Position numbers and translations under genes: made by a program. From the UHGV virus genome UHGV-0267581: a DNA stretch of 30,715 nt; one strand, written 5' to 3'. The DNA comes from a virus. The notes beneath the pieces were generated by a model. The model saw only the letters and a program-made list of their open reading frames with translations, was not told the DNA's origin and made no database searches. Position 1 is the first letter of the stretch. Each line of letters begins with the position of its first letter. This document shows, one piece after another, positions 3,964 to 27,136 of the stretch.

Positions 3964-4317
3964 TTATCCATTCCACCGTGATTTTTTTGATCTGGAATCG
4001 ATATGCGTAAATGTTTTATATTTTCCTAAGCCGTATTGAGTAGGATATTTCCCATCAAGATAAGCATGAACAATATCAGGTGAGACACCCTTGATAACAA
4101 TGTCAGCCGCACGGCCTCGAACGTGATAGCTATTGGCTGCCCCGCCTACATTCTTGTTATGAGTCGGGCAACGGTTGCCACTGTTAATAATCACTGGTTT
4201 ACCGAAGTGCTCTCGTACATCCTCAAGAATTACCAGTAATTCAGCGTCAATTGTATCATAATCACATTTTCCGCATTTACATTTAAATTCCTTGCGAGAA
4301 AAATGTTTGCTTAACAT
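3964..4317 (-). CDS. endolysin, peptidase M15-type (putative L-alanyl-D-glutamate or D-Ala-D-Ala metallopeptidase)
   Basis: Motif recognition: SGNRCPTHN ... SYHVRGRAADI ... FTHID gives the His/Asp/His zinc-ligand pattern of small phage M15 peptidases. Last gene before the terminator in the lysis cluster. Confidence 0.7.
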   Translation of the reverse strand: MLSKHFSRKEFKCKCGKCDYDTIDAELLVILEDVREHFGKPVIINSGNRCPTHNKNVGGAANSYHVRGRAADIVIKGVSPDIVHAYLDGKYPTQYGLGKYKTFTHIDSRSKKSRWNG

Positions 4318-11477: not shown

Positions 11478-13832
11478 TTACATCTTACGGCGTTGTGCGT
11501 CTTCTACCGCCTGAGCAACTAACTTAGCGTGACGTTTGATAGCATCCATGACCATCTTGTCTGAGCTATTAACGTTGCCGTTAATGTTCAAAGGTGCGTT
11601 AACTTCAATCGGCTGAGAGTTGCCACCGCCTGATTTTTGAGCAGCAAGGAAGTCTTTCAAATCACCGTTAGTACGCTGATCAACTACTCGTTCACCCTTA
11701 TCAAGCAACCATGTACCCTCACGAGGGATATTATCGATACCATCATGAGCCATACCGCTAACGTTAGTAGACTTGATGTTTGCGATGTTCCCCATGTTCT
11801 GAGAAACAGCCAATGCAGCAGCAGCGATCTTTTGTCCTGTGGTTACGTTGGTCGGATCGTTCCATGCATCGGTAGCAGCCGTCCACATGTTCACCGTCGC
11901 TTGTCCAATGGAGAATGCTTTATGAGCATTGAAAGCCATCTGCATAGCTTTAGTGTTTTCCTGCCCGAAGAGAGTCATTGCAGCAGCAAAACCGCCATAC
12001 ATATCATCGGCTATTGACTGGCGAGCATCAGCATATTTCTTTTCAATTGCAGCCATCCGTTTTTGATGGTTTTCATTGAGTTTTTCTAATGCAGCCATCC
12101 GTTTAGCTGGATCATTAATACCATCAATATTGAGTTTTTCGGTCTTATAATCTTGTTCAGCTTCCGATTTCTCTTGATCGATTGCATTAAATTTAGCAAA
12201 CGGGTTATTTGAATCCTGATAGTCTAAGCTATTAGTCAATTGATTGGTTTTAAAACCATCCATTCCCTGTAACTGACTATCAATCTGAGAATAGTTTTGC
12301 TCGGTATCATTCACACGACGCATATATTCTTCGTAGGAGATAGCTTTACCATCAAGTAACCGTTTATGGCTTTCTAGCTCGTTGTCCCTGATTTGTTGCA
12401 AAACTGTTAAGGCATTCAGAGCATCAATCGGATCAGCACCCAACATCATTTTATAGATGTTTTCTGCGTTCTGATCTAACAGTTGCTGACGTTTAGCGGC
12501 TGCGTCTTGCTGAGAGATTAAGCCCATATCTAAAGCAGTGTCTAAATCTTTCAAGCTGGCTTCTAACTGCTTGTTTTGAGAAGCAATAGACGCGGCTGTC
12601 TGTCCTTGCAATTTAACATCAAGAGCATTCAGTCGCTTGATTGCATCCTCGCGTGCTTTCTGTGCTTTTTCTGCGGCTTCCTTAGCCTTTTTAGCTGCCT
12701 CTTCCGCTTTCTTCTTGGCTTCTTCTTGTTCTTTTTTCGATGGTCCGGTGACGCCTCCACCTTGACCCGTTGGGGTAAATCCGGTATCCGATTTATTTCC
12801 AGTGATAGTAATTACCGGATCACCGTTTTTATCACGGGTAACGCCTTCACTATCCACCCAACGATCAGGATAATTTGGTTTATTGTTGAAGCTGGCTTGT
12901 CCACCCGCTAGACCAGTAGAACTATAACCATGCTTGTTAATAAAACCACCGTTAGCCATAGCCATATTCTGGCGAGCTTTTTCAAACCTTTCATTAAAAG
13001 TCTTTAATGCGTTGAATAAAGCGGTCTTTTCCCAATCTTTATCAAACCAGTTGTAAAGATTATTCATCCCTTCAACAACTGGATTTAGTGCATTTGCAGC
13101 CATACCCTTTAAGTTATCGGTAAGGGTATCCATATTTTTAGAGAATTTATTATATTCTTCGGCTGTGTCATTGGTGATTTTAACAGTTTGCTGATTAATG
13201 GCGTTTACAGCTTCCTGATAAGATCCGTATTTCTGCAATTCATCAGCCATATGACTTGAATCACTGGCTAACGATTCCATCATAAACTTAACATCAGCGA
13301 TAGACGCACCAGCCTTGCGCATATCATAGAAGACCTTGATCGCCGCTTTCATCCCGCCTTGTGGATCGTTCATAAACTCGGCATAATCTTTAATCTTCAA
13401 ACCTACACTTTCTAGGTCGTCTTCAATACCGCCACCGTTACGCCATGCATCAGCCAGCTTATCTAAGGTGTCTTTGTTAATATCACCAAATTTCTCAACG
13501 GTTAAGCCAGTACCGGAGAATTGCTTCTCTAATTTCTGGAGTGTTTCGACGGTTAAACCAGTTGCTTTTGAAACTTCGCTGTATTCCTTTACATAATCAC
13601 CGATGGCATTTGCAGCAGAAATAGCGCCAGCAGCCAAACCAACAAAACCACCAGCAGCCAAAGCAAGCGATCCACCAGTTCCGCGAAGGGTTCCACTTAA
13701 ACTAGATAAACCACCAGACAAATCAAGATTCATTGCCCTTTCTGAAAGGTTATCAAGCATCTCTATCGCCTGATTGGTACTTCTCCTTAGACCGTCATTA
13801 TCTCCTTCTATTGTTACTATATGTCTTGTCAT
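11478..13832 (-). CDS. tail tape measure protein (784 aa)
   Basis: Long protein directly after the chaperone pair; Gly-rich hydrophobic segment near the N-terminus, extended coiled-coil stretch (KKEQEEAKKKAEEAAKKAKEAAEKAQKAREDAIKRL); followed by a hairpin. Confidence 0.85.
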   Translation of the reverse strand: MTRHIVTIEGDNDGLRRSTNQAIEMLDNLSERAMNLDLSGGLSSLSGTLRGTGGSLALAAGGFVGLAAGAISAANAIGDYVKEYSEVSKATGLTVETLQKLEKQFSGTGLTVEKFGDINKDTLDKLADAWRNGGGIEDDLESVGLKIKDYAEFMNDPQGGMKAAIKVFYDMRKAGASIADVKFMMESLASDSSHMADELQKYGSYQEAVNAINQQTVKITNDTAEEYNKFSKNMDTLTDNLKGMAANALNPVVEGMNNLYNWFDKDWEKTALFNALKTFNERFEKARQNMAMANGGFINKHGYSSTGLAGGQASFNNKPNYPDRWVDSEGVTRDKNGDPVITITGNKSDTGFTPTGQGGGVTGPSKKEQEEAKKKAEEAAKKAKEAAEKAQKAREDAIKRLNALDVKLQGQTAASIASQNKQLEASLKDLDTALDMGLISQQDAAAKRQQLLDQNAENIYKMMLGADPIDALNALTVLQQIRDNELESHKRLLDGKAISYEEYMRRVNDTEQNYSQIDSQLQGMDGFKTNQLTNSLDYQDSNNPFAKFNAIDQEKSEAEQDYKTEKLNIDGINDPAKRMAALEKLNENHQKRMAAIEKKYADARQSIADDMYGGFAAAMTLFGQENTKAMQMAFNAHKAFSIGQATVNMWTAATDAWNDPTNVTTGQKIAAAALAVSQNMGNIANIKSTNVSGMAHDGIDNIPREGTWLLDKGERVVDQRTNGDLKDFLAAQKSGGGNSQPIEVNAPLNINGNVNSSDKMVMDAIKRHAKLVAQAVEDAQRRKM

Positions 13833-13835
13833 AAA

Positions 13836-14210
13836 TTACCCCAATTGTCCGCTCTTGAGCTTTTGTAATAATGAAGCGTCGAAAAAACTATCAACCAAAG
13901 CAGCGTTACGTTCTTCCTCTTTCTTACGAGCAATTTCTTTTATTTCTTCTTGCGTTTTAAATTGCTTGTCGTCCTTAATCATTCGGAATTGGTTAACATT
14001 GATTTTATTCAACCATTCACGAGTCATGTTAGGAGATGTAACGTGCATGTAATACATCGACTGTGCATGTCGCGCATCTTGAAACAGGGGGCTTTGTGGT
14101 TCAAGATATGTATCGAATATATGCAACGCCCAAAATAGCGTAATTGGCATATTATCCATCTCATCTTTACTCAAGCCCCGACGCATCATTTGCCGAAAAT
14201 AAAAATTCAA
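13836..14210 (-). CDS. tail assembly chaperone, T segment (expressed as a G-T fusion by -1 frameshift; no ATG of its own, opens with TTG)
   Basis: Open frame lying -1 relative to the upstream G-like ORF, sharing a 16-nt overlap that contains A-AAG immediately 5' of the G stop; conserved position between the tube region and the tape measure. Confidence 0.55.
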   Translation of the reverse strand: MNFYFRQMMRRGLSKDEMDNMPITLFWALHIFDTYLEPQSPLFQDARHAQSMYYMHVTSPNMTREWLNKINVNQFRMIKDDKQFKTQEEIKEIARKKEEERNAALVDSFFDASLLQKLKSGQLG

Positions 14211-14218
14211 GAGCGGGT

Positions 14219-14527
14219 TTACTTTACCTCGTTTTCAATTACCGCCGCATCTTTCATCAATGATGCTTGAGCAACTAAGCCGATTAATTCGCTGCGGACG
14301 CTAGTATACAATGCCTTAACTTGTTCAATAGATTCAAATACTGGCTTACCGTCTTCATCTTCAATACAACGAAGAATAGAGCGTTCATCACGGTCTTTTT
14401 TATCAGTATTGAAAACATGTTCATTAAATTCTTGTACCGACATAGGGCGAGCATAGAACGTAAATCCTCCGAGGGTTAAAGATTCACGTTTCGGAGAAAG
14501 AGCTTTCAGCATTTCATTCAGATTCAT
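14219..14527 (-). CDS. tail assembly chaperone (gpG-like, 102 aa)
   Basis: Small acidic protein immediately upstream of the tape measure; the downstream frame is open in -1. Confidence 0.6.
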   Translation of the reverse strand: MNLNEMLKALSPKRESLTLGGFTFYARPMSVQEFNEHVFNTDKKDRDERSILRCIEDEDGKPVFESIEQVKALYTSVRSELIGLVAQASLMKDAAVIENEVK

Positions 14528-14572: not shown

Positions 14573-15079
14573 TTAAGAGATTTTCAAAGTCTGCTTAGTG
14601 CCAGTCTTCTTAATGTTATTGAGGAAAGCAGCCGGAGGATTGCTTAACCAATAGTAATGAAAACCGCTTTGCATACTGTTATAAGGAACAGTGACAGCAG
14701 CACCACCCAAATTAACGGTTATATTCCCCGCTCTACCGTTCTGGAGATATACAGCCATAGTAGGAGTACCGCCATTGAATTGACCAACGATAACGCCAAT
14801 CAGACGCCCTACGCCCACGTTTTCGGGGTTCTCCATAGATCCTTTACCGCGCATGTCAGTTACTGGATAGTTTGAAGCAGTTACACCCCAGTTATTACCC
14901 AATGAAGTAGACCACGCAGCAGTAGCTACAACCGTATCCATACCACGACCACACATCGCACTCATGTTAGCTGGGCGACTAACCTTTAATGCGTTCATTG
15001 CTGCGCTCATCCATCGTTGACCAGTTACAGAAACAGCAGATGACCCGACCCAGCCAGGCTTATTAACGACATTCGCCAT
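14573..15079 (-). CDS. virion structural protein of unknown role (168 aa; Gly/Ala/Ser/Thr/Asn-rich, almost uncharged)
   Basis: GGAG SD 8 nt upstream; lies between the tail-tube candidate and the chaperone gene. Confidence 0.5.
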   Translation of the reverse strand: MANVVNKPGWVGSSAVSVTGQRWMSAAMNALKVSRPANMSAMCGRGMDTVVATAAWSTSLGNNWGVTASNYPVTDMRGKGSMENPENVGVGRLIGVIVGQFNGGTPTMAVYLQNGRAGNITVNLGGAAVTVPYNSMQSGFHYYWLSNPPAAFLNNIKKTGTKQTLKIS

Positions 15080-15094
15080 TTTGATTACTCCAAT

Positions 15095-15121
15095 AAAAAA
15101 GCCCCACCATTAAGGCAGGGC
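15095..15121 (-). terminator. intrinsic terminator downstream of the tail-protein extension (GCCCUGCC-UUAAU-GGUGGGGC then U6 on the minus strand)
   Basis: 8-bp stem with two G-U wobbles, 5-nt loop, U-tract; near-identical copy at 20930-20955. Confidence 0.6.
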
Positions 15122-15127
15122 TTATAA

Positions 15128-15250
15128 TTAATCTTTAGCCTTGCGGCTTCGTTTAGCTGTGGCTTTCGCCGTAACTTCTTCTACTTCTGGAATCACCACC
15201 GCTTCATGTTCCGGCTGTGGTTCCGGTTCGGGAAGTTCTTCGTTAGTTCA
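15128..15250 (-). other. in-frame recoded extension after a TGA stop (39 codons: TNEELPEPEPQPEHEAVVIPEVEEVTAKATAKRSRKAKD, ending TAA)
   Basis: Hand-translated; same frame as the upstream gene, no internal ATG, UGA-ACU-AAC context and C-terminal VTAKAT...RK.K motif shared with the extension after the capsid gene. Confidence 0.55.
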
Positions 15251-15721
15251 TCCGGCAGTGAAGATTTGCTGTTTCAGCGGAGCACCATCCACCGCGAAGG
15301 TAAACTCTTTGGTTACAACTTCTTCATCGCCACCGTTCATAGCAACTTTAGAAATGAAGCCGTTGAAAGCGGTGCGAATACCAGTCTGTTTTGCTGCGTC
15401 AACGTAATATTCTACTTTAATCTGAATACGAGTACCGTCTTCGGCAGCTTTGATCAGTTTTTCATGTACCGCATCGCCTGGGATGTAGTTAACGGTCAGA
15501 GTCAGATCAGGAACGTTCAGCTTCCCTACCAGTTTACGGTTATACTGAGAAGAGAAGGATTTAACTTCTACAGTACCGCGCTCGATACCAGTTTCAGGAA
15601 AACCAGCACACTCTTTAATTTCTTCGTAGCTTTCGTGGTCGAGAGCGGTATTAGTGGTGTCCGCGTGATAGAACAGACTTACCAGACCACCAGTAAAAAT
15701 ATCTTTGAATTGCTGAGACAT
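15248..15721 (-). CDS. major tail (tube) protein candidate, 157 aa
   Basis: AAGGGGTAATTCT SD context shared with the other abundant late genes; size and position fit a tail-tube protein; carries the TGA-readthrough extension. The role (tube versus other abundant virion protein) is inferred. Confidence 0.5.
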   Translation of the reverse strand: MSQQFKDIFTGGLVSLFYHADTTNTALDHESYEEIKECAGFPETGIERGTVEVKSFSSQYNRKLVGKLNVPDLTLTVNYIPGDAVHEKLIKAAEDGTRIQIKVEYYVDAAKQTGIRTAFNGFISKVAMNGGDEEVVTKEFTFAVDGAPLKQQIFTAG

Positions 15722-15777
15722 AGAATTACCCCTTAATTAAAATTGTTATTACGGGGGAACTAGTCCCCCGACTTTTA

Positions 15778-18700
15778 TTATTTAGTTGCTTTCAGTTCGG
15801 CAATTTCTTTCTGTAATGCTTCGATCTGGGCTTTATATTTGGCGTCCATTTCCTGCATAGCTTTGATGATTAAAGCATTGACAGCAGAGTTAGAAATAGT
15901 CTTGATTGCTTCTGGATTTTCTGGATCTTCGGTGGATTGAATACCTACTGCTTCCGGCAATACTTCTTCCAGATCCTGAGCAATAATACCTACTTCGCGT
16001 TTAATCACACTACGGTCTTTAAGAGATTTAACTTTATCGTAGGTGTAGACTTTCAGTGAGTTTACTTTCTCTAATGCGCCGTCCTGTAATTCTTCCTTGT
16101 TAATCTTCAAACGGGAGTCAGAGCGAATGTAAACATCGTTAAACGAACCGTTACGACCTGCGGTAAAGTCACCAGCAGCGTTAAAGTCAAAGTTAGTATC
16201 ATGAACATGGAGACGAACAAGAGCGTTACCGATAGTACCGTCAGGAACGTGCACACCCATTGCTGCAATGTGATATTTACCCCAATGCGTCGCTTTCCAT
16301 ACGTTATGTGCCGAGTTGGTGGATTGAGGACACCCAACCATAAGACCAGCAGCACGGTCACGCCAGCTAGCCCAACTACCGCCAGCAACTTCACCACGAA
16401 TCAGGCCATTACCGCCACCGGTTACAGTACCAGATTCCAACTGGATCATTTTATCTGCAAATTTCCACATCTGGGCTTGTTTCTGACCACGGAAGCGAAT
16501 AGCACCAGCATCATCGCAGTACATCAAGCCTAACTCTAAACCGTTCGGATCTCTAAACCAGATGTGCTTATTGCCAGTGCGTTTAAACTCAATATCAGCA
16601 CCGTTGATAGTGATATTACCGCCAGTGTGAATTGCTTGAGGCTTAACAGTACCGTTGATGGCAAACTCAATTGCCGTAGTACCCGGACCGCCCGGACGTT
16701 GGGTATACCAATGCCAACCGCTTTCATCAGCACATTCAAATACTTGTTTACGAGCATCAGCGCCCCATGCACGAATATTGAAACTAGAAGTAGCTGTACC
16801 CTTACCCCAGCGAATCAGACCAGCAGATTCCAAATCACCGAAGAATTTAGTTTTAATCGCACCAGTTGCTAAAGTACGTTCAGTGGTGAAGTGAGCACCT
16901 TTACTATCTTCAAGCTGTATAACGTTATCACGAGCGTTATTGCTATCGCCCCAATGACTCAAACGGAAATAGTCGCGGGATTGTCCAGCACCAGCATCAA
17001 ATGTTAAATATTGGCCTTTAATGTATGTGTTTCCAGCAAAACGAGCAGCACGACTTGCACGTTCTAAGACTAATGCACCTTCGTTACCATCACCACCCAA
17101 AGTAACATTACCGCTACCCAGATTGTAAATGAATGGACGATAGCCGTTCCAACCACCAAATTTATCATTTTCGGCAGTAGACAGAAGATATACGTTTTGA
17201 CCATCATTACGCCAGAATGCACCATAGTTACCGTAAATCATACGGAATGCATCACTGTTAGCAGCTACATATTGACCATTGGTGTATACAATTTTGGTAG
17301 CACCTGTGCTTAAAGATACTTGACCACTTGCTTCTAATTTAACAAAGTTTTTACCTTCGTCACTATACCATTGAAAATCGTTAGTATCTGTAGAACCAAA
17401 ACCAAACCAGCCTTGACGTTTATTAGCCCCGTCTCGCTGATCCATATATTCAAAATAGTTACTACGACCAGTAGGACGCCACATACGAATCGCGTTATTG
17501 CCTTGCAGATGAAGTCTATCGACAAATAAACCATCACTACCAACAATTTTTAATACTTCTTTTTGGTCGGTGGAACCAGTAGCCAAACGATACACATCAC
17601 CTTGAACAGTTTCATGCCATATTGTTTCCGCCGCACGACTGCGGAATTTACGCATATATTTTTTATTGTTGTCTGGTACGTTATTAAGGCTCACAATATC
17701 ATAGGTTGCTTGTGAGTTATTATCAAACATCAACGTTCCGGCTTTGTTTTCGGTGTTGAACATCGTAATAACACGAGCATCGGTAACACCAACAGAAGGT
17801 TTAACGAGAGTTAATTCAGGAACATCATGTACTGTCAGAGTAACGCCATCAGTTTTACCGTATTCGACAATAACGTTATCGGTGTAACGACCGTAGTTAA
17901 CGTAGATATCGTAGTTATCACCGGAAGTATTAACCGCAAATACTTGATGAACGTTCAGAGCATTTCGACGATAAGCAGCAATACTAACGCCTTTCGGGTT
18001 ATTGTTACCGGAACGGATGACAATTTCTACAAAGTCAACCTGATCATAAGAGTTAACGTTATAACCATTACCACCGAAGATACGAAGCATTACCATTCGA
18101 CCATTCTGTGGGATCGTAGCGGTTGCGATCTTGAAGTATCCACGAGTAGCATCACCAGAAGGAACGGTCATTCTAACGTTCTTGATGAACATCTGATCAA
18201 CTTCGGCTTTACTATACACACCCAATTCAGTCGGAGTCGGCTTATCACCTTCGTGATACATGCGGTAGCTGAATCGCTTATTACCATCTTTATCAAAGCC
18301 ATAGGTTTTAACTTGAGATGAGCTAGACCCATAGTGGAACTCAAAACCGCGACCGTGTGCTTTACCGCCAGAATGAGGAATGTTAAGGATTAAGTTACCC
18401 CAACCTTCGGCATTGTTTGGACGGAATGCACCAAAATAATCAAGGTTACGAGCACCAGCATCATCAAAATAGTTAGCTGTTTTGGTTAACAGATAGCCGT
18501 GATGGTAAGTGTTGGTATTCTTCTTGATGTAAGCAGCATCGGCACTACCTTCAATAGAATCAATTCGCTGGTTAGCTGCGGCAATTGCGGCATCAGTAGA
18601 AGATTTATTCTGGTCTACCTTGTTGTTAATTGCTGTATGGTTGCTATTAACTGTCCCCGTAAGATTGGTGATCTTCGTGTCGGCATCGCGTTTATTATTT

Positions 18701-19278
18701 GCTACGGTCGTTTCTATGGCTGATTTATTTGCTGAGACAGTATTCGTTAAGTTAGTAACGTTGGTATTAGTCTGATCAACTCGTGCATTAATATCTGTCT
18801 TGTTCTTGTTAATTGTTGCGTTGATAGTATCGCGGGTTGAAGTAATAGTCTGATTCAGTTCAGTCTTAGCAGCCGCCAGAGCGTTAGCCGCTTCGGTTTT
18901 ATTGTTACCTACTGTGGTAGTCAAAGCATCAATTCGTTTGTTGGCTGCGGTGTCGCCAGCAGTGATTGAAGCATTGAGAGCATCACGGGTAGAAGTGATA
19001 GTCTGATTCAGTTCAGCTTTAGCACTAGCCAGATTATTAGCGGCTTCTTGTTTGTTGGAAGCAATAACACGGTCAGTGCTAGTTTTGTTATTGTCTACTT
19101 TCGTATTCAGTTCAGCGTGTTTTTCTGGAGAAACACTAATTTGGACTACGTTATTATTTTTGTCTTTGGTGTAAATCACATGATCCGCCAACTGTAAGGC
19201 GATTTCACCCTGTGATAATTGTTCCGGCGTTGGTTTTTTACCCGCCGTCTGTGTGCGTTTAAATTGGATTGATTGCAT
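15778..19278 (-). CDS. side (L-shaped-type) tail fiber with C-terminal intramolecular chaperone, peptidase S74-like (1166 aa)
   Basis: C-terminus YIRSDSRLKINKEELQDGALEKVNSLKVYTYDK... matches the autoproteolytic chaperone signature known from phage T5 pb1 and endosialidase tailspikes; N-terminal 51-residue tandem repeats (ELNQTITSTRD twice); two KPTPxELG fiber-anchor-like motifs (residues 15-22 and 346-353). Confidence 0.8.
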   Translation of the reverse strand: MQSIQFKRTQTAGKKPTPEQLSQGEIALQLADHVIYTKDKNNNVVQISVSPEKHAELNTKVDNNKTSTDRVIASNKQEAANNLASAKAELNQTITSTRDALNASITAGDTAANKRIDALTTTVGNNKTEAANALAAAKTELNQTITSTRDTINATINKNKTDINARVDQTNTNVTNLTNTVSANKSAIETTVANNKRDADTKITNLTGTVNSNHTAINNKVDQNKSSTDAAIAAANQRIDSIEGSADAAYIKKNTNTYHHGYLLTKTANYFDDAGARNLDYFGAFRPNNAEGWGNLILNIPHSGGKAHGRGFEFHYGSSSSQVKTYGFDKDGNKRFSYRMYHEGDKPTPTELGVYSKAEVDQMFIKNVRMTVPSGDATRGYFKIATATIPQNGRMVMLRIFGGNGYNVNSYDQVDFVEIVIRSGNNNPKGVSIAAYRRNALNVHQVFAVNTSGDNYDIYVNYGRYTDNVIVEYGKTDGVTLTVHDVPELTLVKPSVGVTDARVITMFNTENKAGTLMFDNNSQATYDIVSLNNVPDNNKKYMRKFRSRAAETIWHETVQGDVYRLATGSTDQKEVLKIVGSDGLFVDRLHLQGNNAIRMWRPTGRSNYFEYMDQRDGANKRQGWFGFGSTDTNDFQWYSDEGKNFVKLEASGQVSLSTGATKIVYTNGQYVAANSDAFRMIYGNYGAFWRNDGQNVYLLSTAENDKFGGWNGYRPFIYNLGSGNVTLGGDGNEGALVLERASRAARFAGNTYIKGQYLTFDAGAGQSRDYFRLSHWGDSNNARDNVIQLEDSKGAHFTTERTLATGAIKTKFFGDLESAGLIRWGKGTATSSFNIRAWGADARKQVFECADESGWHWYTQRPGGPGTTAIEFAINGTVKPQAIHTGGNITINGADIEFKRTGNKHIWFRDPNGLELGLMYCDDAGAIRFRGQKQAQMWKFADKMIQLESGTVTGGGNGLIRGEVAGGSWASWRDRAAGLMVGCPQSTNSAHNVWKATHWGKYHIAAMGVHVPDGTIGNALVRLHVHDTNFDFNAAGDFTAGRNGSFNDVYIRSDSRLKINKEELQDGALEKVNSLKVYTYDKVKSLKDRSVIKREVGIIAQDLEEVLPEAVGIQSTEDPENPEAIKTISNSAVNALIIKAMQEMDAKYKAQIEALQKEIAELKATK
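18821..19060 (-). repeat. intragenic tandem direct repeat in the fiber gene (two units about 153 bp apart)
   Basis: Identical 18-mer TAGTCTGATTCAGTTCAG at 18846-18863 and 18999-19016 with similar flanks; encodes the duplicated ELNQTITSTRD segments. Confidence 0.7.
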
Positions 19279-20899: not shown

Positions 20900-20929
20900 A
20901 GTTACCCCCTTTATGGAGTATTTACATAC

Positions 20930-20955
20930 AAAAAAGCCCCACCGTTAGGCAGGGC
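20930..20955 (-). terminator. intrinsic terminator downstream of the capsid extension (GCCCUGCC-UAAC-GGUGGGGC then U6)
   Basis: Near-identical to the hairpin at 15095-15121, including both G-U wobbles. Confidence 0.6.
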
Positions 20956-20961
20956 TAATTA

Positions 20962-21093
20962 TTATTCTTTAGTTTTACGTTGTTTTTTAACTGTGGCTTT
21001 CGCCGTAACCGTCTGAGATTCTTCTTCCTGAGATGGAATCAGATTTTCTTCCCCCAAATCGGGGGAAGGTTCAGATGGTTCTACGTTAGTTCA
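20962..21093 (-). other. in-frame recoded extension after a TGA stop (42 codons: TNVEPSEPSPDLGEENLIPSQEEESQTVTAKATVKKQRKTKE, ending TAA)
   Basis: Hand-translated; same frame as the capsid gene, no ATG, conserved UGA-ACU-AAC context and VTAKAT basic tail shared with the 15128-15250 extension. Confidence 0.55.
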
Positions 21094-23097
21094 TTCAGCG
21101 GAGATGTGAAGAACTTTCAGAGCTTCCGGCTGAACTACGGTGAAGTCCAGGTCTACCCAGATACGCGGAACGATAGCAGACTGTGCGCGGTAAGTGGTGT
21201 CGTCCATATCCAGTTCCAGACCACCCCATTCACCGATCATGATACCGGAGAAGTCACCCAGAACGATGTGGTCTGCCGGAATAACGCCAGAAGTAACTAC
21301 ATCGTAACCAGCCAGTTTGCCGTTTTCGATGATATAACCGGAAACGCCGTTATCTTTCAGGGTAGATTCCAGTTCAGCAGCAGTTGCACCGCTCATTGCA
21401 AACTTGATGGACTGTGCCGGAACGCCAGCGTCGGTCAGTGCTGCAATTTCTTTCAGGAAGTCTTTGTAGCTAAAAGCGGCTTTCTTAGTAACGCGACCAC
21501 CGTCTACCAGTTGCTTAACCAGACCTTTCGGACCGCGCTCGTTGTCTTTGTCAGACAGAATCAGTTGTTCCAGTTTGATCCGAACAGATTTGTTAATGTG
21601 ATCAGTGATCAGGGTAGCAATATTCGGAACAGTTTTCAGAGACTGACGGCTGATCGGGTTGCCACCAGCAAAAGTTTTCGGAGCCATTTTCACGTTTTCA
21701 AAGCTAGCCTTCGATTCGGGGGCACTTCCATTTTCATCAACAAAACCAAAGGCTTCGACGCTGGAAGCAGTCATTTTTGGTACTGCAATCGGGCTATTCA
21801 GACCAGACAGAACAGTCACACCCAGACGACCCAGAACAGACTGTGGAAGCAGCATTTCTACATAGGATTCGGTCAGCAGTTTTTCGTCGGTTACAGCGGT
21901 CAGAGTAGCTTTGGTGTTACCTTCGGAAGCAGCACGCAGAGCAGCAGCCGGAACGAATACAGAGCCACCGCGAGCAGCACGACCACGCTGCATTGCAGCA
22001 CCAGCAGCCATAGCGGAATATTCAGCTTCGTTAGCGCCGAGCACGTCGCCATCTACCAGGGAGCGGATTACGTTATTAAGATCGAAAGTTTTTTCCATGA
22101 TTTGTTCCTTATTAATTTGTTCGTTATTACGTTGAACATTGGTAATGTTATTTAGTGCCTTAGTGCGGAATGCTTCCGGCGTCATATCTTTAACTGCCAA
22201 TGCGCGTTCTAATTCTTCGTCGTTAATATTTAACTCACGAGCGATTGCTCGGATTTCTTCTTCGTCTTCTTCGGAACGTTCAGCCACTTCTTCTATTTTT
22301 TCTTCTTCAACCGGAGCGGCTTCACGTTCTTCTTTTACTTCTTCTGTTTCCCGAACAGTTGAACTATCATCATCAACACTTTCAGGATGTTTAGCGTCTT
22401 TTCCGTCTTCGAGATTTTCATCTTCTTTATTCTCTTCAACTTGGCGCTCTTGAGTTTCTTCTACTTCCGGTTCTTTATTTTCTTCTACCGGAGTTTCTTC
22501 AACCTGAGCGGGTTCTTGTTCTTCTTTGATTTCTTCGATTTGTTCTTTAGTCATATCGCGTTTAGCCTCCAAATTAACTGTGATAGTATTTAGAGAGCGA
22601 TTCAGACCCACGGTGTCGTCTGCGGGAACAGACACCCATGAAACCTCGTGAGGAATCCATTTAGTAACAATCAATTGTCCTTTGGTGTAGTCGATGTGAT
22701 ATTCTTTAATGTCATAACCGACAGAAATTTTTTCCATCGTACCTTCAATGACTTTATTACGAATATCATTAGCCAAAGTGCCATGCTTAGAGAATTTAAC
22801 CAGAGCACGACCTACGTTATCCGCATCGATTCGAGCGTTACAAACGACACCAATATGATTATCGAAATTATGATTGAACAGCAACGGAGCGTTATTATTC
22901 AGACGAGACAGATCAACCGCTTCCGGTGTATGTACCAGAATTTCATCTAATACCACCATTTCTTGATTTTGCTCATCCCAGAATTGGCGCTGATAAGGCT
23001 GTTCACTGGAGAAAGCAATTTCAAATTCGTATTGATCATTCTGCCCTTCGTTAATAACTCCACCGTAACCGTTAAGATCGCGGCGAAATTTAAGCAT
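21091..23097 (-). CDS. prohead protease / acidic linker / HK97-type major capsid protein encoded as one 668-aa polypeptide
   Basis: N-terminal roughly 170 aa resemble HK97-family prohead proteases; a roughly 120-aa Glu-rich low-complexity linker follows; the C-terminal roughly 300 aa resemble HK97-fold major capsid proteins; sits after the portal in the canonical order. Confidence 0.8.
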   Translation of the reverse strand: MLKFRRDLNGYGGVINEGQNDQYEFEIAFSSEQPYQRQFWDEQNQEMVVLDEILVHTPEAVDLSRLNNNAPLLFNHNFDNHIGVVCNARIDADNVGRALVKFSKHGTLANDIRNKVIEGTMEKISVGYDIKEYHIDYTKGQLIVTKWIPHEVSWVSVPADDTVGLNRSLNTITVNLEAKRDMTKEQIEEIKEEQEPAQVEETPVEENKEPEVEETQERQVEENKEDENLEDGKDAKHPESVDDDSSTVRETEEVKEEREAAPVEEEKIEEVAERSEEDEEEIRAIARELNINDEELERALAVKDMTPEAFRTKALNNITNVQRNNEQINKEQIMEKTFDLNNVIRSLVDGDVLGANEAEYSAMAAGAAMQRGRAARGGSVFVPAAALRAASEGNTKATLTAVTDEKLLTESYVEMLLPQSVLGRLGVTVLSGLNSPIAVPKMTASSVEAFGFVDENGSAPESKASFENVKMAPKTFAGGNPISRQSLKTVPNIATLITDHINKSVRIKLEQLILSDKDNERGPKGLVKQLVDGGRVTKKAAFSYKDFLKEIAALTDAGVPAQSIKFAMSGATAAELESTLKDNGVSGYIIENGKLAGYDVVTSGVIPADHIVLGDFSGIMIGEWGGLELDMDDTTYRAQSAIVPRIWVDLDFTVVQPEALKVLHISAE

Positions 23098-23142: not shown

Positions 23143-24654
23143 TTAGGGATCGGTTTGAGAAGGGTTATCCTTGCTCTCACCATCAACGATAATATTTAGT
23201 GCGCTCTTTTCGGCTTGAATCTCTGAGAATACTTTTTCAGGATCATCACCACGTTCTAATATAACGGCAGTACGTGATTTAAGTCCGTTATCAATTAAAG
23301 CAATCTCGGCGCTTACGTCTTTAAATGGATCGACGGATTCAAAACGAGGACGAATAATAGTAGTGTTCTCGATAATATGCGGAATTGCAGTAATACGAAT
23401 CGGAACAATACCACGCGCAGAATAATGGCGTAGATATGCTTCAAAAATTGGCAATACCACTGTTTCAATCAATTTGTTTTGCAGTGCTTTAACGCGCGTT
23501 CTTTGAAGTAATTCGCCGTAGCGTGCGGCGCTGTAATTTATTTGGCTAGTATCGCCAGTTAAGCCCTGATTGAACACGCCAAGACCCATCGCTATACTCG
23601 TGAACATTCCATCATTGAAGCTGTTAAAGTCATCGCCGCTTTGCGTGGATTGAATACTCTTGATCGTTGCCCCTTCCGGTAATTCCTGAATAGTACCTGG
23701 CGCGAAATCGTGAATAACTTCCGGCGCTTGATATTGTTCATCATCTTCACCAGTATCAAAATCGTCACCAGAATCTTTCGGACGCTCGATGAACGCCATG
23801 CTACAACTTGAAATTCGTTTATGTACCAGTACAGCTTCGCGGAATGCGTCTTGATGTGCGATATCCTTAATCACTGGCAGGAAGTCAGTCACACCACGCA
23901 GAGATTCAGCCGCAAGTGGTTGATAATAATGACATACTTGCGAAGCATCTACGCGATAGTTATCACCTGTGTAAGTCTGAGTCAGTAGGTTGATTTTACG
24001 AAACCAAAATGCAACAGGGCGCATTGTTTCTACGTCATACTCGATCCCCTGATAGATAGCGCGTTCTTTGCTTACTTCACGGTTGAGCGTCCAGTCGCAC
24101 TTATCAGCAGACAGGATAGAAACATTTAACTCATTGTTTTCTTTGGTTAAAACTATGAAGCACTCACCACCCATAACGCGCTCACGTTCAGCCATTACCA
24201 GCAATTCACGGAAGTTAAAGCGACCGTTACGAGAGAAGCGTTTAGCATTCTGCGCCCACTTCCAGAAAGCATTCTCGATCTGCTTATTCAGTGCGCTATC
24301 AAGTTTTCCATTTGATTTAACAACTGACGGCTTCGGATCTAGGCCAGTACCTACCACCATATCGGTGATGTATTGCGTGTAGCGACTGCCTACGGAGGTG
24401 TTTAAGGCCAGAGTACGACCCTGATCATAAAGGCGCTTACCATTCGATTTGAGAGCCTTATTGAAGGTTCCTGTGATAGTATCTTGTTGAAGCGATCCAT
24501 CAATGCGATCACCAACCAGACCTAAACTTCGAGTAGCCAGAGATTTCTGGAATTTTTCTACTTGTTTGTCGATAAAGATTTTTTGTTGTTGCTGGCGGTG
24601 ATTAGTTTTAACTGGAGTTTCTACCGCCTTTTTGCGTCGAAAAAGATTAAACAT
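23143..24654 (-). CDS. portal protein (lambda gpB-like, 503 aa)
   Basis: Position between the gpW-like gene and the protease-capsid gene; size and weak sequence resemblance to lambda-family portals; AAGGGGTAAA SD. Confidence 0.75.
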   Translation of the reverse strand: MFNLFRRKKAVETPVKTNHRQQQQKIFIDKQVEKFQKSLATRSLGLVGDRIDGSLQQDTITGTFNKALKSNGKRLYDQGRTLALNTSVGSRYTQYITDMVVGTGLDPKPSVVKSNGKLDSALNKQIENAFWKWAQNAKRFSRNGRFNFRELLVMAERERVMGGECFIVLTKENNELNVSILSADKCDWTLNREVSKERAIYQGIEYDVETMRPVAFWFRKINLLTQTYTGDNYRVDASQVCHYYQPLAAESLRGVTDFLPVIKDIAHQDAFREAVLVHKRISSCSMAFIERPKDSGDDFDTGEDDEQYQAPEVIHDFAPGTIQELPEGATIKSIQSTQSGDDFNSFNDGMFTSIAMGLGVFNQGLTGDTSQINYSAARYGELLQRTRVKALQNKLIETVVLPIFEAYLRHYSARGIVPIRITAIPHIIENTTIIRPRFESVDPFKDVSAEIALIDNGLKSRTAVILERGDDPEKVFSEIQAEKSALNIIVDGESKDNPSQTDP

Positions 24655-25231: not shown

Positions 25232-27136
25232 TTAGAACGATGTTACCCAGCTACGGCCTCTATTTGGGCGTCTGGCGATGTTTTTACGTTGTGGTCGTGT
25301 GATTGGCTTATTTTCTTCGATTTGCTCGTCAGATTGCGATTTAGGAGCTTCTACGGGTTCTTCTGGTTCGCGGTTCAAACTATCTTTGATGGCTTCGAGT
25401 TTTTCCCATGACATTTTATTGAGTACATGGCGAGAAGCAGCATAGGAATAAGCCAGGCAGTCGAGAGCCTCGTTTCGTTGCTGACCAACTTTTACCCAAC
25501 GTGTGGTATTACCCTGCCGTTTCAACTGTTCAGATAACAATTGTTCGCAGTAGTCATCAGGAACGTCACCAATCTGGAAGACCGTATGAGGATCGCTGTC
25601 TCTCAAGTTCCGGTTAATCATTTCACGGATCATCGTCTTAAGGTTGTTTACGCCCAGAATTTTAAGAGTAAAACCACCCGTTCTTGTGTCCTTGACCGGA
25701 AGGATTGGAGCATCAACATTGCTTGCCCCTTTAATGGCGCATAGGTTTTGCCACCTAGTGCAGAAGCGATAGATCACGTTTGTAGCTCGTCCGTTCGATG
25801 AGTCCACGAAAGCAGATAGCATCGGGATTCGTTGACCTGATCGGGTATAGAATTTAGCTTTCAGGAAGTTGTAAAGCTGGTCATATGCTGGCGATTCGTG
25901 GCGTTCGCAGTTCACATCATAGAATGATCGGTGATCAACTACGCATATCCCCTTACGAGAGATACCCAGCAAGGTAGATTCCAGACGGTCTTTTTGCTGG
26001 TCAACTCCACCTACCAGAGCCAGAACATCATCAGGAATATTATCTAAGCTAATGTCAGTTTTCAGCGTTTCCAGTTCGTCGGCTGTGCGGTCTTCGTTAA
26101 GATCATCGAAGGTTTCACCGAGCACCACATTATAGAACGTTGCCAGTGACATATTCGCGTAGCTATCAGCAAAGTCCACCACACACGCACGGATAGAACT
26201 AAACGGAGACATAAGGCGGTTAGCATGAAAACCGATTACTTCCGCATTTGGTTCGGTGGCGACCCATTCTCCCTGAGCAACAGCACGGAGGCGATCTGGT
26301 TCTGACCAATCAGTTTCACATGACGGGCAACGGTAAACGGCTGTGTCTGGATTCGGCAGTGATTTACCATTGATTACATGCCAATCAAAGAATACTCTAC
26401 TCCATTCCATTACGTGTTTGTGTCCGCAATGCTGGCAAACGACGTGGTATTTTCTTTTATCCGAGAGTTCCCATTGTTGGTTTATCGCCCCATCCCGCGA
26501 AGTTGGAGTAGAAGCAATTACGATCCTTGCATCATCACCGAAAGTGGTTGCGCGTTGTTCCGCTAGCTGGATCGGGTTCCCTTCGTCTGACTCATCAGCC
26601 GCATCAACTTCATCCAGAATAATCAAAGGCAGTGTCTTACCGCGCAAGTGTGATGGACTGTTCAGCGACATGAAATACATGAATGATCCGTTACGAAGCT
26701 GAATAATCGATGAGTTGTTAACGGCATTGCGATCTGATTTGTCGGTGATCATCGCCTTTAATTCTGGGGTTGCCTCTAATACTGGCTTCACCTTACCCGC
26801 AATCCATGAGTTCAATTCTCGAACGTTCGCTTGCAAAACACCGATATTAGTAGGGTTACTGGCGATCCTGTGAAAGATAATACCGTTTAGCACAAGAGTT
26901 TTACCCAACTGTGCCGAGCACTTTAGCACAATTTTTCGCCTATCTTCGGTGATCGCGTCCATCATTCCACGTTGGAAGGGATGCAACTTAATTAGAGATC
27001 CGGCTTTAACACCATCGGTTGCAACTACATTAGCCTCTACCCATTCGCTAGGTTTCATCGTTTTAGGTGGGCGAATTGCCGCAGAGATATTTTTAAGAAT
27101 CTTTTTTAATTTGGCCTTATTAGAAATCAGTTTCAT
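25232..27136 (-). CDS. terminase large subunit, lambda GpA family (634 aa)
   Basis: Walker A CSAQLGKT and Walker B LIILDEVD; segments resembling lambda gpA (PSEWVEAN, HPFQRGMMDA, CQHCGHKHV, RNEALDCLAYSYAA); first gene of the late operon; GAGGG SD. Confidence 0.9.
   Translation of the reverse strand: MKLISNKAKLKKILKNISAAIRPPKTMKPSEWVEANVVATDGVKAGSLIKLHPFQRGMMDAITEDRRKIVLKCSAQLGKTLVLNGIIFHRIASNPTNIGVLQANVRELNSWIAGKVKPVLEATPELKAMITDKSDRNAVNNSSIIQLRNGSFMYFMSLNSPSHLRGKTLPLIILDEVDAADESDEGNPIQLAEQRATTFGDDARIVIASTPTSRDGAINQQWELSDKRKYHVVCQHCGHKHVMEWSRVFFDWHVINGKSLPNPDTAVYRCPSCETDWSEPDRLRAVAQGEWVATEPNAEVIGFHANRLMSPFSSIRACVVDFADSYANMSLATFYNVVLGETFDDLNEDRTADELETLKTDISLDNIPDDVLALVGGVDQQKDRLESTLLGISRKGICVVDHRSFYDVNCERHESPAYDQLYNFLKAKFYTRSGQRIPMLSAFVDSSNGRATNVIYRFCTRWQNLCAIKGASNVDAPILPVKDTRTGGFTLKILGVNNLKTMIREMINRNLRDSDPHTVFQIGDVPDDYCEQLLSEQLKRQGNTTRWVKVGQQRNEALDCLAYSYAASRHVLNKMSWEKLEAIKDSLNREPEEPVEAPKSQSDEQIEENKPITRPQRKNIARRPNRGRSWVTSF

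Follow-up and report, generated by a model that had tools for sequence, protein, structure and literature searches.

RNA phages and plant viruses are known to make readthrough forms of their coat proteins, and among tailed phages we know of long and short capsid and tail forms made by recoding only through frameshifting. The Listeria phages PSA, A118, and A500 and the Lactobacillus phage A2, for example, make long forms of their capsid and tail proteins in this way (PMC5009743). A literature search, limited in its reach, returned no report of stop-codon readthrough in the capsid or tail genes of tailed phages, which is absence of evidence only. Here, we analyze the virus genome UHGV-0267581, a stretch of 30,715 nucleotides (nt; referred to below as the window) that covers most of a siphovirus-type Escherichia coli prophage of 35 to 36 kilobases (kb), with its late operon on the minus strand. 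The genes for its major capsid protein and its tail tube protein both end in TGA, and each TGA is followed by an in-frame extension, a second stop, and an intrinsic terminator. Going by the sequences of the window and its relatives, we consider it probable that paralogous cassettes at the ends of the two genes serve programmed UGA readthrough at a low level. If so, an in-frame cassette of this kind, duplicated on a head gene and a tail gene of a temperate coliphage, would be a new way of making extended virion proteins. Current annotation misses the cassettes, as RefSeq leaves 150-170 nt unannotated after both genes. The two genes and the parts of their cassettes are as follows.

21091..23097, minus strand: gene for an S78 prohead protease fused to the major capsid protein, 668 amino acids (aa), TGA included; late operon
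21088..21093, minus strand: putative leaky stop of the capsid gene, TGA (21093-21091) then ACT
20965..21090, minus strand: capsid extension, 42 codons, acidic spacer and then basic tip VTAKATVKKQRKTKE
20959..20964, minus strand: tandem strong stop TAA TAA, with T after each, ending the capsid extension
20929..20956, minus strand: intrinsic terminator of the capsid cassette (hairpin 20956-20935), stem as in the tube copy
15248..15721, minus strand: gene for the tail tube protein, 157 aa, TGA included
15245..15250, minus strand: putative leaky stop of the tube gene, TGA then ACT
15131..15247, minus strand: tube extension, 39 codons, TNEELPEPEPQPEHEAVVIPEVEEVTAKATAKRSRKAKD, acidic Pro/Glu-rich spacer and then basic tip VTAKATAKRSRKAKD
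15122..15130, minus strand: strong stop of the tube extension, TAA-T, TTA, and a second in-frame TAA (TAAs at 15130-15128 and 15124-15122)
15093..15123, minus strand: intrinsic terminator of the tube cassette, 20 nt upstream of the start codon of a gp38-like gene

Two cassettes with an open frame behind TGA

The first-pass annotation of the window had described, at the tube gene, an open reading frame (ORF; 15248-15721) ending in ...FTAG, a TGA, 39 in-frame codons closed by TAA (15128-15130), and a hairpin with a U-tract, and all of these are in the sequence. It had also proposed looking elsewhere for the shared nucleotide motif downstream of structural genes, and an 18-nt core of this kind did find cassettes in IMG/VR and in metagenomes. 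Further relatives came from a search of IMG/VR for similar tube proteins (24 loci), from looking up more distant homologues of the tube protein by exact protein match, and from E. coli genomes. The resulting set of about 80 cassettes holds 37 distinct extension sequences, 15 from the tube gene and 22 from the capsid gene. Retrieval was independent of the stop codon, and the loci derived from the 18-mer are biased toward an intact core motif. Among 5426 complete E. coli genomes, the capsid cassette is present in 52 and the tube copy in 23.

Wherever relatives carry an extension, it stays open in the frame of the upstream gene, over 36, 39, 40, or 41 codons in the tube gene and over 28, 33, 42, 43, 44, or 45 codons in the capsid gene. 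All 37 distinct extensions are open in this sense frame 0, a property that no other of the six frames has: the +1 and +2 frames hold 1.6 to 4 stops per cassette in every variant, and even the best antisense frames fail in 2 to 6 variants. Alignment gaps are all 3, 6, 9, 27, or 48 nt long and stem from at least six independent events (P ≤ ~1e-3). Exchangeable head, middle, and tip segments make the capsid extension a mosaic, and every combination of them is in frame. Substitutions tell the same story, in that about 99 events have produced no in-frame stop where 4.3 were expected (P ~0.013). In the tube extension, the ratio of nonsynonymous to synonymous differences per site (pN/pS) is 0.42 in frame 0 versus 0.90 and 1.17 in the other sense frames. 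Across these relatives, the combined patterns indicate that the extension is kept as coding sequence, continuous with the frame of the upstream gene and behind an invariant weak stop.

The stop codons point in the same direction. The first stop is TGA with an A at position +4 in all of the roughly 80 cassettes (15 of 15 distinct tube and 22 of 22 distinct capsid sequences). The codon before the tube TGA varies (GGA, GCT, TCT, or GGT), and the capsid cassettes sit on two divergent capsid C-termini, ...HISAE and ...VVQKKVD. The earlier claim of one common recoding signal holds within the window, where TGAACTAACG is exact at both the tube and the capsid stop, and shrinks in the relatives to UGA-A(C/A)U, the next codon being AAC, TTC, CCT, or AGC. 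TGA stops are rare here: the 33 main ORFs of the window close with TAA in 28 cases (85%), with TAG in 2, and with TGA in 3, the capsid and tube genes accounting for two of the last (hypergeometric P ~0.006). Within the 25 minus-strand late genes, TGA closes only these two. The extensions themselves end in TAA-T, mostly doubled, with TAA followed by TAATTA in 28 of 31 distinct cassette contexts. Their second stop varies between TAA and TGA, and the first stop is never TAA or TAG. UGA is described as the leakiest stop, and UGA followed by A as especially misread by tRNA-Trp in E. coli (PMC5289835, which cites Engelberg-Kulka 1981 for the misreading); UAAU is described as the most efficient bacterial termination signal (PMC5289835). 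Because the weak stop stands where a downstream ORF exists and the strong stop stands at the end of that ORF, the arrangement reads as the signature of programmed readthrough.

Relatives without the extension provide a comparison set, consisting of the tube genes of some E. coli relatives that keep only the capsid cassette (L026-28 and L087-88) and of both genes in the Salmonella and Hafnia relatives, which have neither cassette. In this set, the same protein stops at the homologous residue with TAA, often TAA TAA, and a terminator follows within 5 to 20 nt. The first-pass annotation had held that absence from close relatives or a frame disrupted without phenotype would speak against a functional module. 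Cassettes are indeed absent from some relatives, and the frame is kept wherever they occur (37 of 37). Its broader proposal, that two unrelated virion genes carry one deliberate module of readthrough and extension, is supported at the level of sequence by the constant TGA-A, the kept frame, the lack of acquired stops, the tandem strong stops, and the TAA in extension-less relatives.

The two cassettes also have sequence in common. The 19-mer GTTACGGCGAAAGCCACAG, which encodes VTAKAT(A), is present in exactly two copies, at 15157-15175 and 20991-21009 (minus strand), with none expected from shuffles even when 3 mismatches are allowed; the near-identity of the DNA for the basic tail, as read in the first pass, is an exact match over these 19 nt. 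A repeat search pairs 15096-15175 with 20930-21009 (80 nt, 76% identity, from the 19-mer through the terminator) and 15225-15261 with 21068-21104 (37 nt around the stop, 76% identity). The middle parts of the two extensions are dissimilar and yield no alignment.

The tube hairpin (15123-15099) has 10 base pairs (bp), AAGCCCUGCC-UUAAU-GGUGGGGCUU, with two G.U pairs and a U-tract after it, and it matches the capsid hairpin down to these two wobbles, adjacent U.G and G.U pairs, as had been noticed before. Both copies have the makeup of rho-independent terminators and are the top two minus-strand sites in the scan. The tube copy, the top terminator-like site, folds at -17.0 kcal/mol (z = -3.3) and the capsid copy at -15.6 kcal/mol (z = -3.0), and stem variants in relatives keep their pairing. 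The idea of one common terminator is thus right as regards the stem, but the terminator is separable from the rest of the cassette. In the relatives L009 (9873-9910) and L024 (4476-4513), the hairpin is found for a third time, behind a tail chaperone gene that ends in TAA and lacks an extension, and L106 has a tube extension followed by a different terminator. Because of the copies without extension, the terminator is to be regarded as a free-standing, reusable unit of this phage group.

Under programmed readthrough, most ribosomes would stop at UGA-A and yield the normal capsid and tube proteins. A small fraction, probably 0.1 to 4%, would insert an amino acid at the UGA, most likely Trp through host tRNA-Trp outcompeting RF2. 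These ribosomes would translate 42 (capsid) or 39 (tube) more codons and stop at the strong UAA-U, usually doubled, 5 nt ahead of the intrinsic terminator. The products would hold the peptides TNEELPEPEPQPEHEAVVIPEVEEVTAK and TNVEPSEPSPDLGEENLIPSQEEESQTVTAK, with ...FTAG-W-TNEELPEPEPQPEHEAVVIPEVEEVTAK as the tube junction. Because no phage tRNA, selenocysteine insertion sequence (SECIS) element, slippery site, or common RNA structure was found, host tRNA-Trp misreading UGA-A is the decoder that we infer, as we do the readthrough efficiency. The RF2 of E. coli K-12 is a weak variant, and reporter levels from K-12 may exceed those in natural hosts. In E. coli BW25113, readthrough in a UGA reporter was about 2% at 37°C and reached 4% at 25°C, the level being set by competition between Trp-tRNA-Trp and RF2 and modulated by cyclic AMP (cAMP) (PMC10570021).

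Objections and rival readings

Several points weigh against programmed readthrough. The case for it is built from sequence comparison, and the relatives compared are close (71-100% nucleotide identity in the cassette), which means that the counts are larger than the number of independent cases. Next to the UGA, the cassettes share no RNA structure or longer motif that might stimulate readthrough (the tube region has z = -1.6). Because of this, the efficiency may be mere background leakiness, perhaps lower in natural E. coli than in K-12. The capsid extension has pN/pS values of 0.68, 0.63, and 0.66 in the three frames and therefore no frame-specific pattern. The codons of the 19-mer (GTT ACG GCG AAA GCC ACA) show zero synonymous change in any cassette and only nonsynonymous variants (T to K, A to V, V to I, and T to P), while neighboring codons do vary synonymously, a hint that the stretch has a role at the level of nucleotides or has undergone recent gene conversion, and that selection does not act on the peptide alone. 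Since they are missing from some relatives, the cassettes are dispensable and accessory rather than essential. Finally, the only database protein that resembles a natural Trp fusion is a gene-calling artifact. This protein (P0001, locus L085), a 198-aa “fused” tube protein with W at the position of the stop, comes from an 842-nt contig that has TGA there and was called under genetic code 4. Such code-4 artifacts (TGA = Trp) could mislead searches for readthrough products.

Gene conversion between tube and capsid cassettes has occurred, to judge from L016/17, in which the capsid tip AKRGRKPKE resembles the tube tip AKRGRKAKN and is now of the tube type; this exchange counts in favor of the main reading. 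Long-range pairing of the 19-mer with the stop context was also considered; by inspection, it amounts to at most 4 bp and is lost in variants.

Of the alternatives, the one that survives best is that the stretch after the TGA is an untranslated, duplicated RNA or DNA module, for example an element for the stability or processing of the mRNA 3' end together with a terminator, or a recombination boundary, with an open frame that is incidental. We regard it as unlikely. The 19-mer, the same in both cassettes and free of synonymous change, the mini-hairpin GGC-GAAA-GCC contained in it and present in both predicted folds, the clear reuse of the terminator by these phages, and the similar capsid pN/pS values across frames would all be at home in such a module. 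The same is true of a stable 8-bp hairpin, UUCCCCCGAUUUGGGGGAA, in the long capsid extension (21048-21068, minus strand; about 24 nt past the UGA; region z = -3.7). The short capsid variant has another, weaker hairpin, CCGGAA-GAAA-UUCCGG, in a similar place, and the tube cassette has a different one, likewise not of comparable strength. However, an untranslated module leaves unexplained why frame 0 alone is open in every distinct extension, why indels come in multiples of three and no stops arise, why TGA-A is constant in a genome in which 85% of the ORFs end in TAA, and why a tandem UAA-U closes the frame. Moreover, a search of Rfam found no known RNA family, and the spacer is highly variable and mosaic, which would be unexpected for a structured RNA.

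Slightly less probable still is that the extensions are decaying remnants of ancestral constitutive tails that were cut by a nonsense TGA, with readthrough as tolerated noise without function. Relatives with constitutive tails do exist. In an Edwardsiella relative, the homologous tube tail follows without a stop (...NVIPEAVAAKEK), which also counts in favor of programmed readthrough, and adds 22 residues in which the VIPE and AAK motifs recur; tube proteins of Salmonella end in ...GSRK or ...GLRK, and the Salmonella capsid ends in ...ASKAK. As these termini show, short basic C-terminal tails recur on both proteins in the wider family. The Hafnia relatives (L032/L033, capsid end 3996-3998) have five more codons after the TAA, in-frame AKSKD-TAA, whose nucleotides (GCTAAA...GATTAATTA) are similar to those at the 3' end of the extension in E. 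coli, and this stretch looks like a remnant of the basic tip. That some lineages can dispense with the cassettes fits as well. Yet two separate genes would each have needed the same nonsense codon in the same context, and divergence (pS about 0.17-0.22), mosaic recombination, and at least six segment gains or losses have led to no frameshift or stop. Decay would also have to account for a TGA that never drifted to TAA or TAG, although the second stop varies between TAA and TGA, and for a cassette found on two divergent capsid C-termini. Under programmed readthrough, the E. coli clade would instead have lengthened the basic tail with an acidic spacer and put it behind a leaky stop, thereby making it substoichiometric.

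Very improbable, and the weakest of the three, is another route of translation (reinitiation or an independent small ORF, frameshifting by +1 or -1, selenocysteine insertion, suppression by a phage tRNA, or a reassigned code): in-frame GTG GTG (tube) and TTG (capsid) codons lie inside the extensions, ATGAACTAA overlaps both stops in the window, and the Edwardsiella capsid gene ends in GGG_UGA with a 16-codon +1 ORF, like the CCC_UGA +1 sites of Listeria phages (PMC5009743), but no start codon or Shine-Dalgarno sequence is conserved, a variant with a 48-nt deletion loses the TTG, indels upstream of the GTGs do not break the frame shared with the upstream gene, no slippery heptamer lies at the junction, and the tube cassette has no hairpin at SECIS distance. 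Six-frame stop counts, with stops in the +1 and +2 frames of every variant, and the lack of a conserved start codon rule out a frameshift, an independent small ORF, and an antisense ORF. Selenocysteine insertion was rejected since no conserved stem-loop lies immediately 3' of the UGA across the cassettes, and stop reassignment was rejected since all genes of the window are intact under code 11. No credible tRNA gene was found: the window has none, and none is annotated in the whole 35.7-kb prophage of a relative, in which the sole ARAGORN call, a 91-nt “tRNA-Gln” antisense inside a coding sequence, is implausible and was taken as a false positive.

The Edwardsiella capsid end itself (L086, 1787-1789) reads CAA GGG TGA T, and its +1 frame gives DTNWSGRGISKERSKA-stop, containing CGGTCGAAAGCC, which is homologous to the core of the 19-mer. 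This single sequence may represent a cassette in decay or, alternatively, a +1 shift site (GGG_UGA) resembling the CCC_UGA sites of the Listeria phages.

Predicted products and their place in the prophage

The proteins that carry the cassettes have recognizable folds. In the capsid gene product, Pfam finds PF04586 at residues 40-162 and PF05065 at residues 410-664 of 668, up to profile position 279 of 280, and residues 410-661 match the capsid protein of roseophage R4C (8GTA, E = 1e-27). The tube gene product scores 28.3 bits for PF16460 (Phage_TTP_11), just below the cutoff of 28.4, over a domain reaching to about residue 148 of 157. A search of its sequence against PDB chains gave no match, and fold comparison was needed. 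An AlphaFold2 (AF2) model of it (predicted local distance difference test score of 75) is matched by Foldseek to the tube domain of lambda gpV and to YDC107 (E ~1e-6, template-modeling score of 0.6, probability of 1.0), and the model superposes on gpV residues 1-156. Both this fold and a position upstream of the chaperone and tape-measure genes are those of a lambda-like siphophage tail tube protein, and RefSeq names the protein in relatives “phage tail tube protein.” Because the Pfam domains reach so close to both ends (capsid residue 664 of 668 and tube residue ~148 of 157), the extensions appear to be additions to complete proteins. In the extensions themselves, which are of low complexity and 28 to 45 residues long, Pfam finds no domain.

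The tube ORF ends in ...IFTAG before the TGA (15250-15248, minus strand), and the extension behind it is dipolar. Its first 26 residues are Pro-rich (EELPEPEPQPEHE...) and include 9 acidic and no basic residues, and the last 13 (AKATAKRSRKAKD) include 6 basic ones. The capsid tail has the same dipolar design. Both paralogues and all variants keep [I/V]P, followed after a short gap by V(T/K)AKAT(A/V)K and then by a cluster of 4 to 6 Arg/Lys (RSRKAKD, RGRKAKN, KQRKTKE, KERKTKAK, KVGRPPKAK, or RGRKPKE). The minor isoforms would thus carry a disordered, acidic Pro/Glu-rich spacer with a conserved basic tip.

The C-termini of HK97-fold proteins (T7 10B, P22 coat protein, and encapsulins) face outward. 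Capsid C-terminal extensions made by frameshifting in T7, T3, and A2 also sit on HK97-fold proteins (PMC5009743), and the C-terminus of lambda gpV leads to an immunoglobulin-like (Ig-like) domain projecting outside the tail (PMC8718954). By analogy with the gpV fold and with the capsid extensions of T7 and T3, which lie on the virion surface, a few copies of the tail probably project from the exterior of both the head and the tail of the virion. The T=7 shell of R4C contains 415 capsid copies (PMC10276861), and, by extrapolation from this copy number only, at 0.5-4% readthrough the tailed subunits would number roughly 2-17 in each head and a few in each tail.

It is tempting to speculate on what the basic tip might do. 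One guess, which we hold only tentatively, is that it binds polyanions such as lipopolysaccharide, capsule, mucus, or DNA and provides weak, reversible adhesion, much as has been proposed for the Ig-like decorations of other phages. A link of the tube extension to the fiber system is possible because the tube cassette co-occurs with the gp38-like gene immediately downstream; tube extensions were seen only in genomes with this gene, or a hypothetical gene, inserted directly downstream of the tube gene. More doubtful is the idea that host-tunable UGA leakiness, which in E. coli varies with tRNA-Trp level, cAMP, and temperature, sets the number of copies of one common adhesive peptide on head and tail, giving condition-dependent virion heterogeneity, with the 19-nt core perhaps acting at the RNA level. 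If it were true, virions from different host states would differ in their surface properties, and tailed phages would gain their first example of a decoration system based on readthrough.

More generally, the cassettes suggest that evolution has carried a display module, very small and portable, from one gene to another. Such a module might be reused for low-copy peptide display on phage particles, and the cassettes may serve as a natural system for asking what sets basal UGA readthrough in wild E. coli. The main proposal is readily testable, given that the lysogens are sequenced E. coli isolates.

The other genes of the late operon are arranged as follows.

25232-27136, minus strand: terminase
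23143-24654, minus strand: portal
After the capsid gene in late-operon order, minus strand: three small head/neck genes
15778-19278, minus strand: T-even-like long fiber with Gp34_trimer and S74 domains
14573-15079, minus strand: gp38-like adhesin, adjoining the tube cassette downstream
Then, minus strand: tail chaperones, tape measure (11478-13832), and tip proteins

The tube gene thus lies between a T-even-type long fiber gene and a gp38-like adhesin gene (14573-19278), which is an unusual order. The fiber gene has about 80% nucleotide identity to gp37 of the RB49 group, and, among 50,697 sequenced phages, only this gp37-like gene found a match (Krischvirus, RB49-like), the rest of the window finding none. 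In a close relative, the prophage is located inside hicB, and a serine recombinase is present. Among the lysogens, E. coli MEI003 (NZ_CP071263) has its prophage in hicB, and UTAK-14 is identical (100%) to a 476-nt query spanning the capsid cassette (window 20925-21400).

Between the gp38-like and tape-measure genes lie two small genes (13836-14527, minus strand), a probable tail chaperone pair of the lambda G/GT type, the first of which is labeled “cytochrome” by RefSeq in relatives. At their junction (about 14210-14235), the first ORF ends in ...GAG GTA AAG TAA and the next goes on in the -1 frame (GKVNPLL...), so that a -1 shift at A_AAG is likely. If this is true, the same operon holds a second, conventional recoding event. 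On the plus strand, long antisense ORFs of 391 aa (20980-22155, over the capsid gene) and 176 aa (15206-15736, over the tube gene) are not open across the cassette in all relatives and are probably by-products of codon usage.

Comparison with known systems

Each of the known systems shares some features with the cassettes and lacks others. The AT-hook (PF02178) is similar in the tip only: the capsid variants KKVGRPPKAK and KRGRKPKE share with it a GRP or RGRK core flanked by basic residues. However, the best variant among the relatives scores 13.4 bits (E = 0.07) against a cutoff of 17.4, and the tips of the window itself, KRSRKAKD and KKQRKTKE, have no GRP core and do not match Pfam AT_hook.

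The Ig-like domain at the C-terminus of lambda gpV (and of T5 pb6) is similar in its place, since the first residue of the tube extension falls exactly at the point where gpV bears its exterior domain (PMC8718954). In gpV, this domain of about 90 aa is folded and constitutive, whereas the tail predicted here would be substoichiometric, probably disordered, and highly charged.

Closest in organization are the recoded proteins of PSA, A118, and A500, of A2, of T7 (10B) and T3, and SPP1 gp17.1*, in which recoding at the 3' ends of both the major capsid gene and the major tail gene of a single phage yields a fixed minority of extended subunits that decorate the exterior and are often nonessential (PMC5009743; PMC8718954). 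These systems use +1 or -1 frameshifts at slippery or CCC_UGA sites and mostly add Ig-like or fibronectin type III (FN3) domains. In contrast, the extensions described here lie in frame 0 behind a stop, with no slippery site, and would add a short linear motif in place of an Ig-like or FN3 domain.

Closest in mechanism is the A1 protein of Q-beta, for which a leaky UGA ends the coat gene of an E. coli virus and is read by host tRNA-Trp without any viral factor, yielding a minor, C-terminally extended coat isoform in a few copies per virion. The stop of the Q-beta coat gene is also followed by A. The sequence hallmarks of this type, a conserved open in-frame continuation and a conserved leaky UGA-A, are both present in the capsid and tube genes, and the likeness of the products is predicted from these hallmarks. 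Q-beta differs in being a single-stranded RNA levivirus whose folded extension of about 195 aa is needed for infection. Here, by comparison, the putative readthrough tails of 28-45 aa are of low complexity, belong to a double-stranded DNA tailed prophage, sit on a head gene and a tail gene alike, and are dispensable in relatives.

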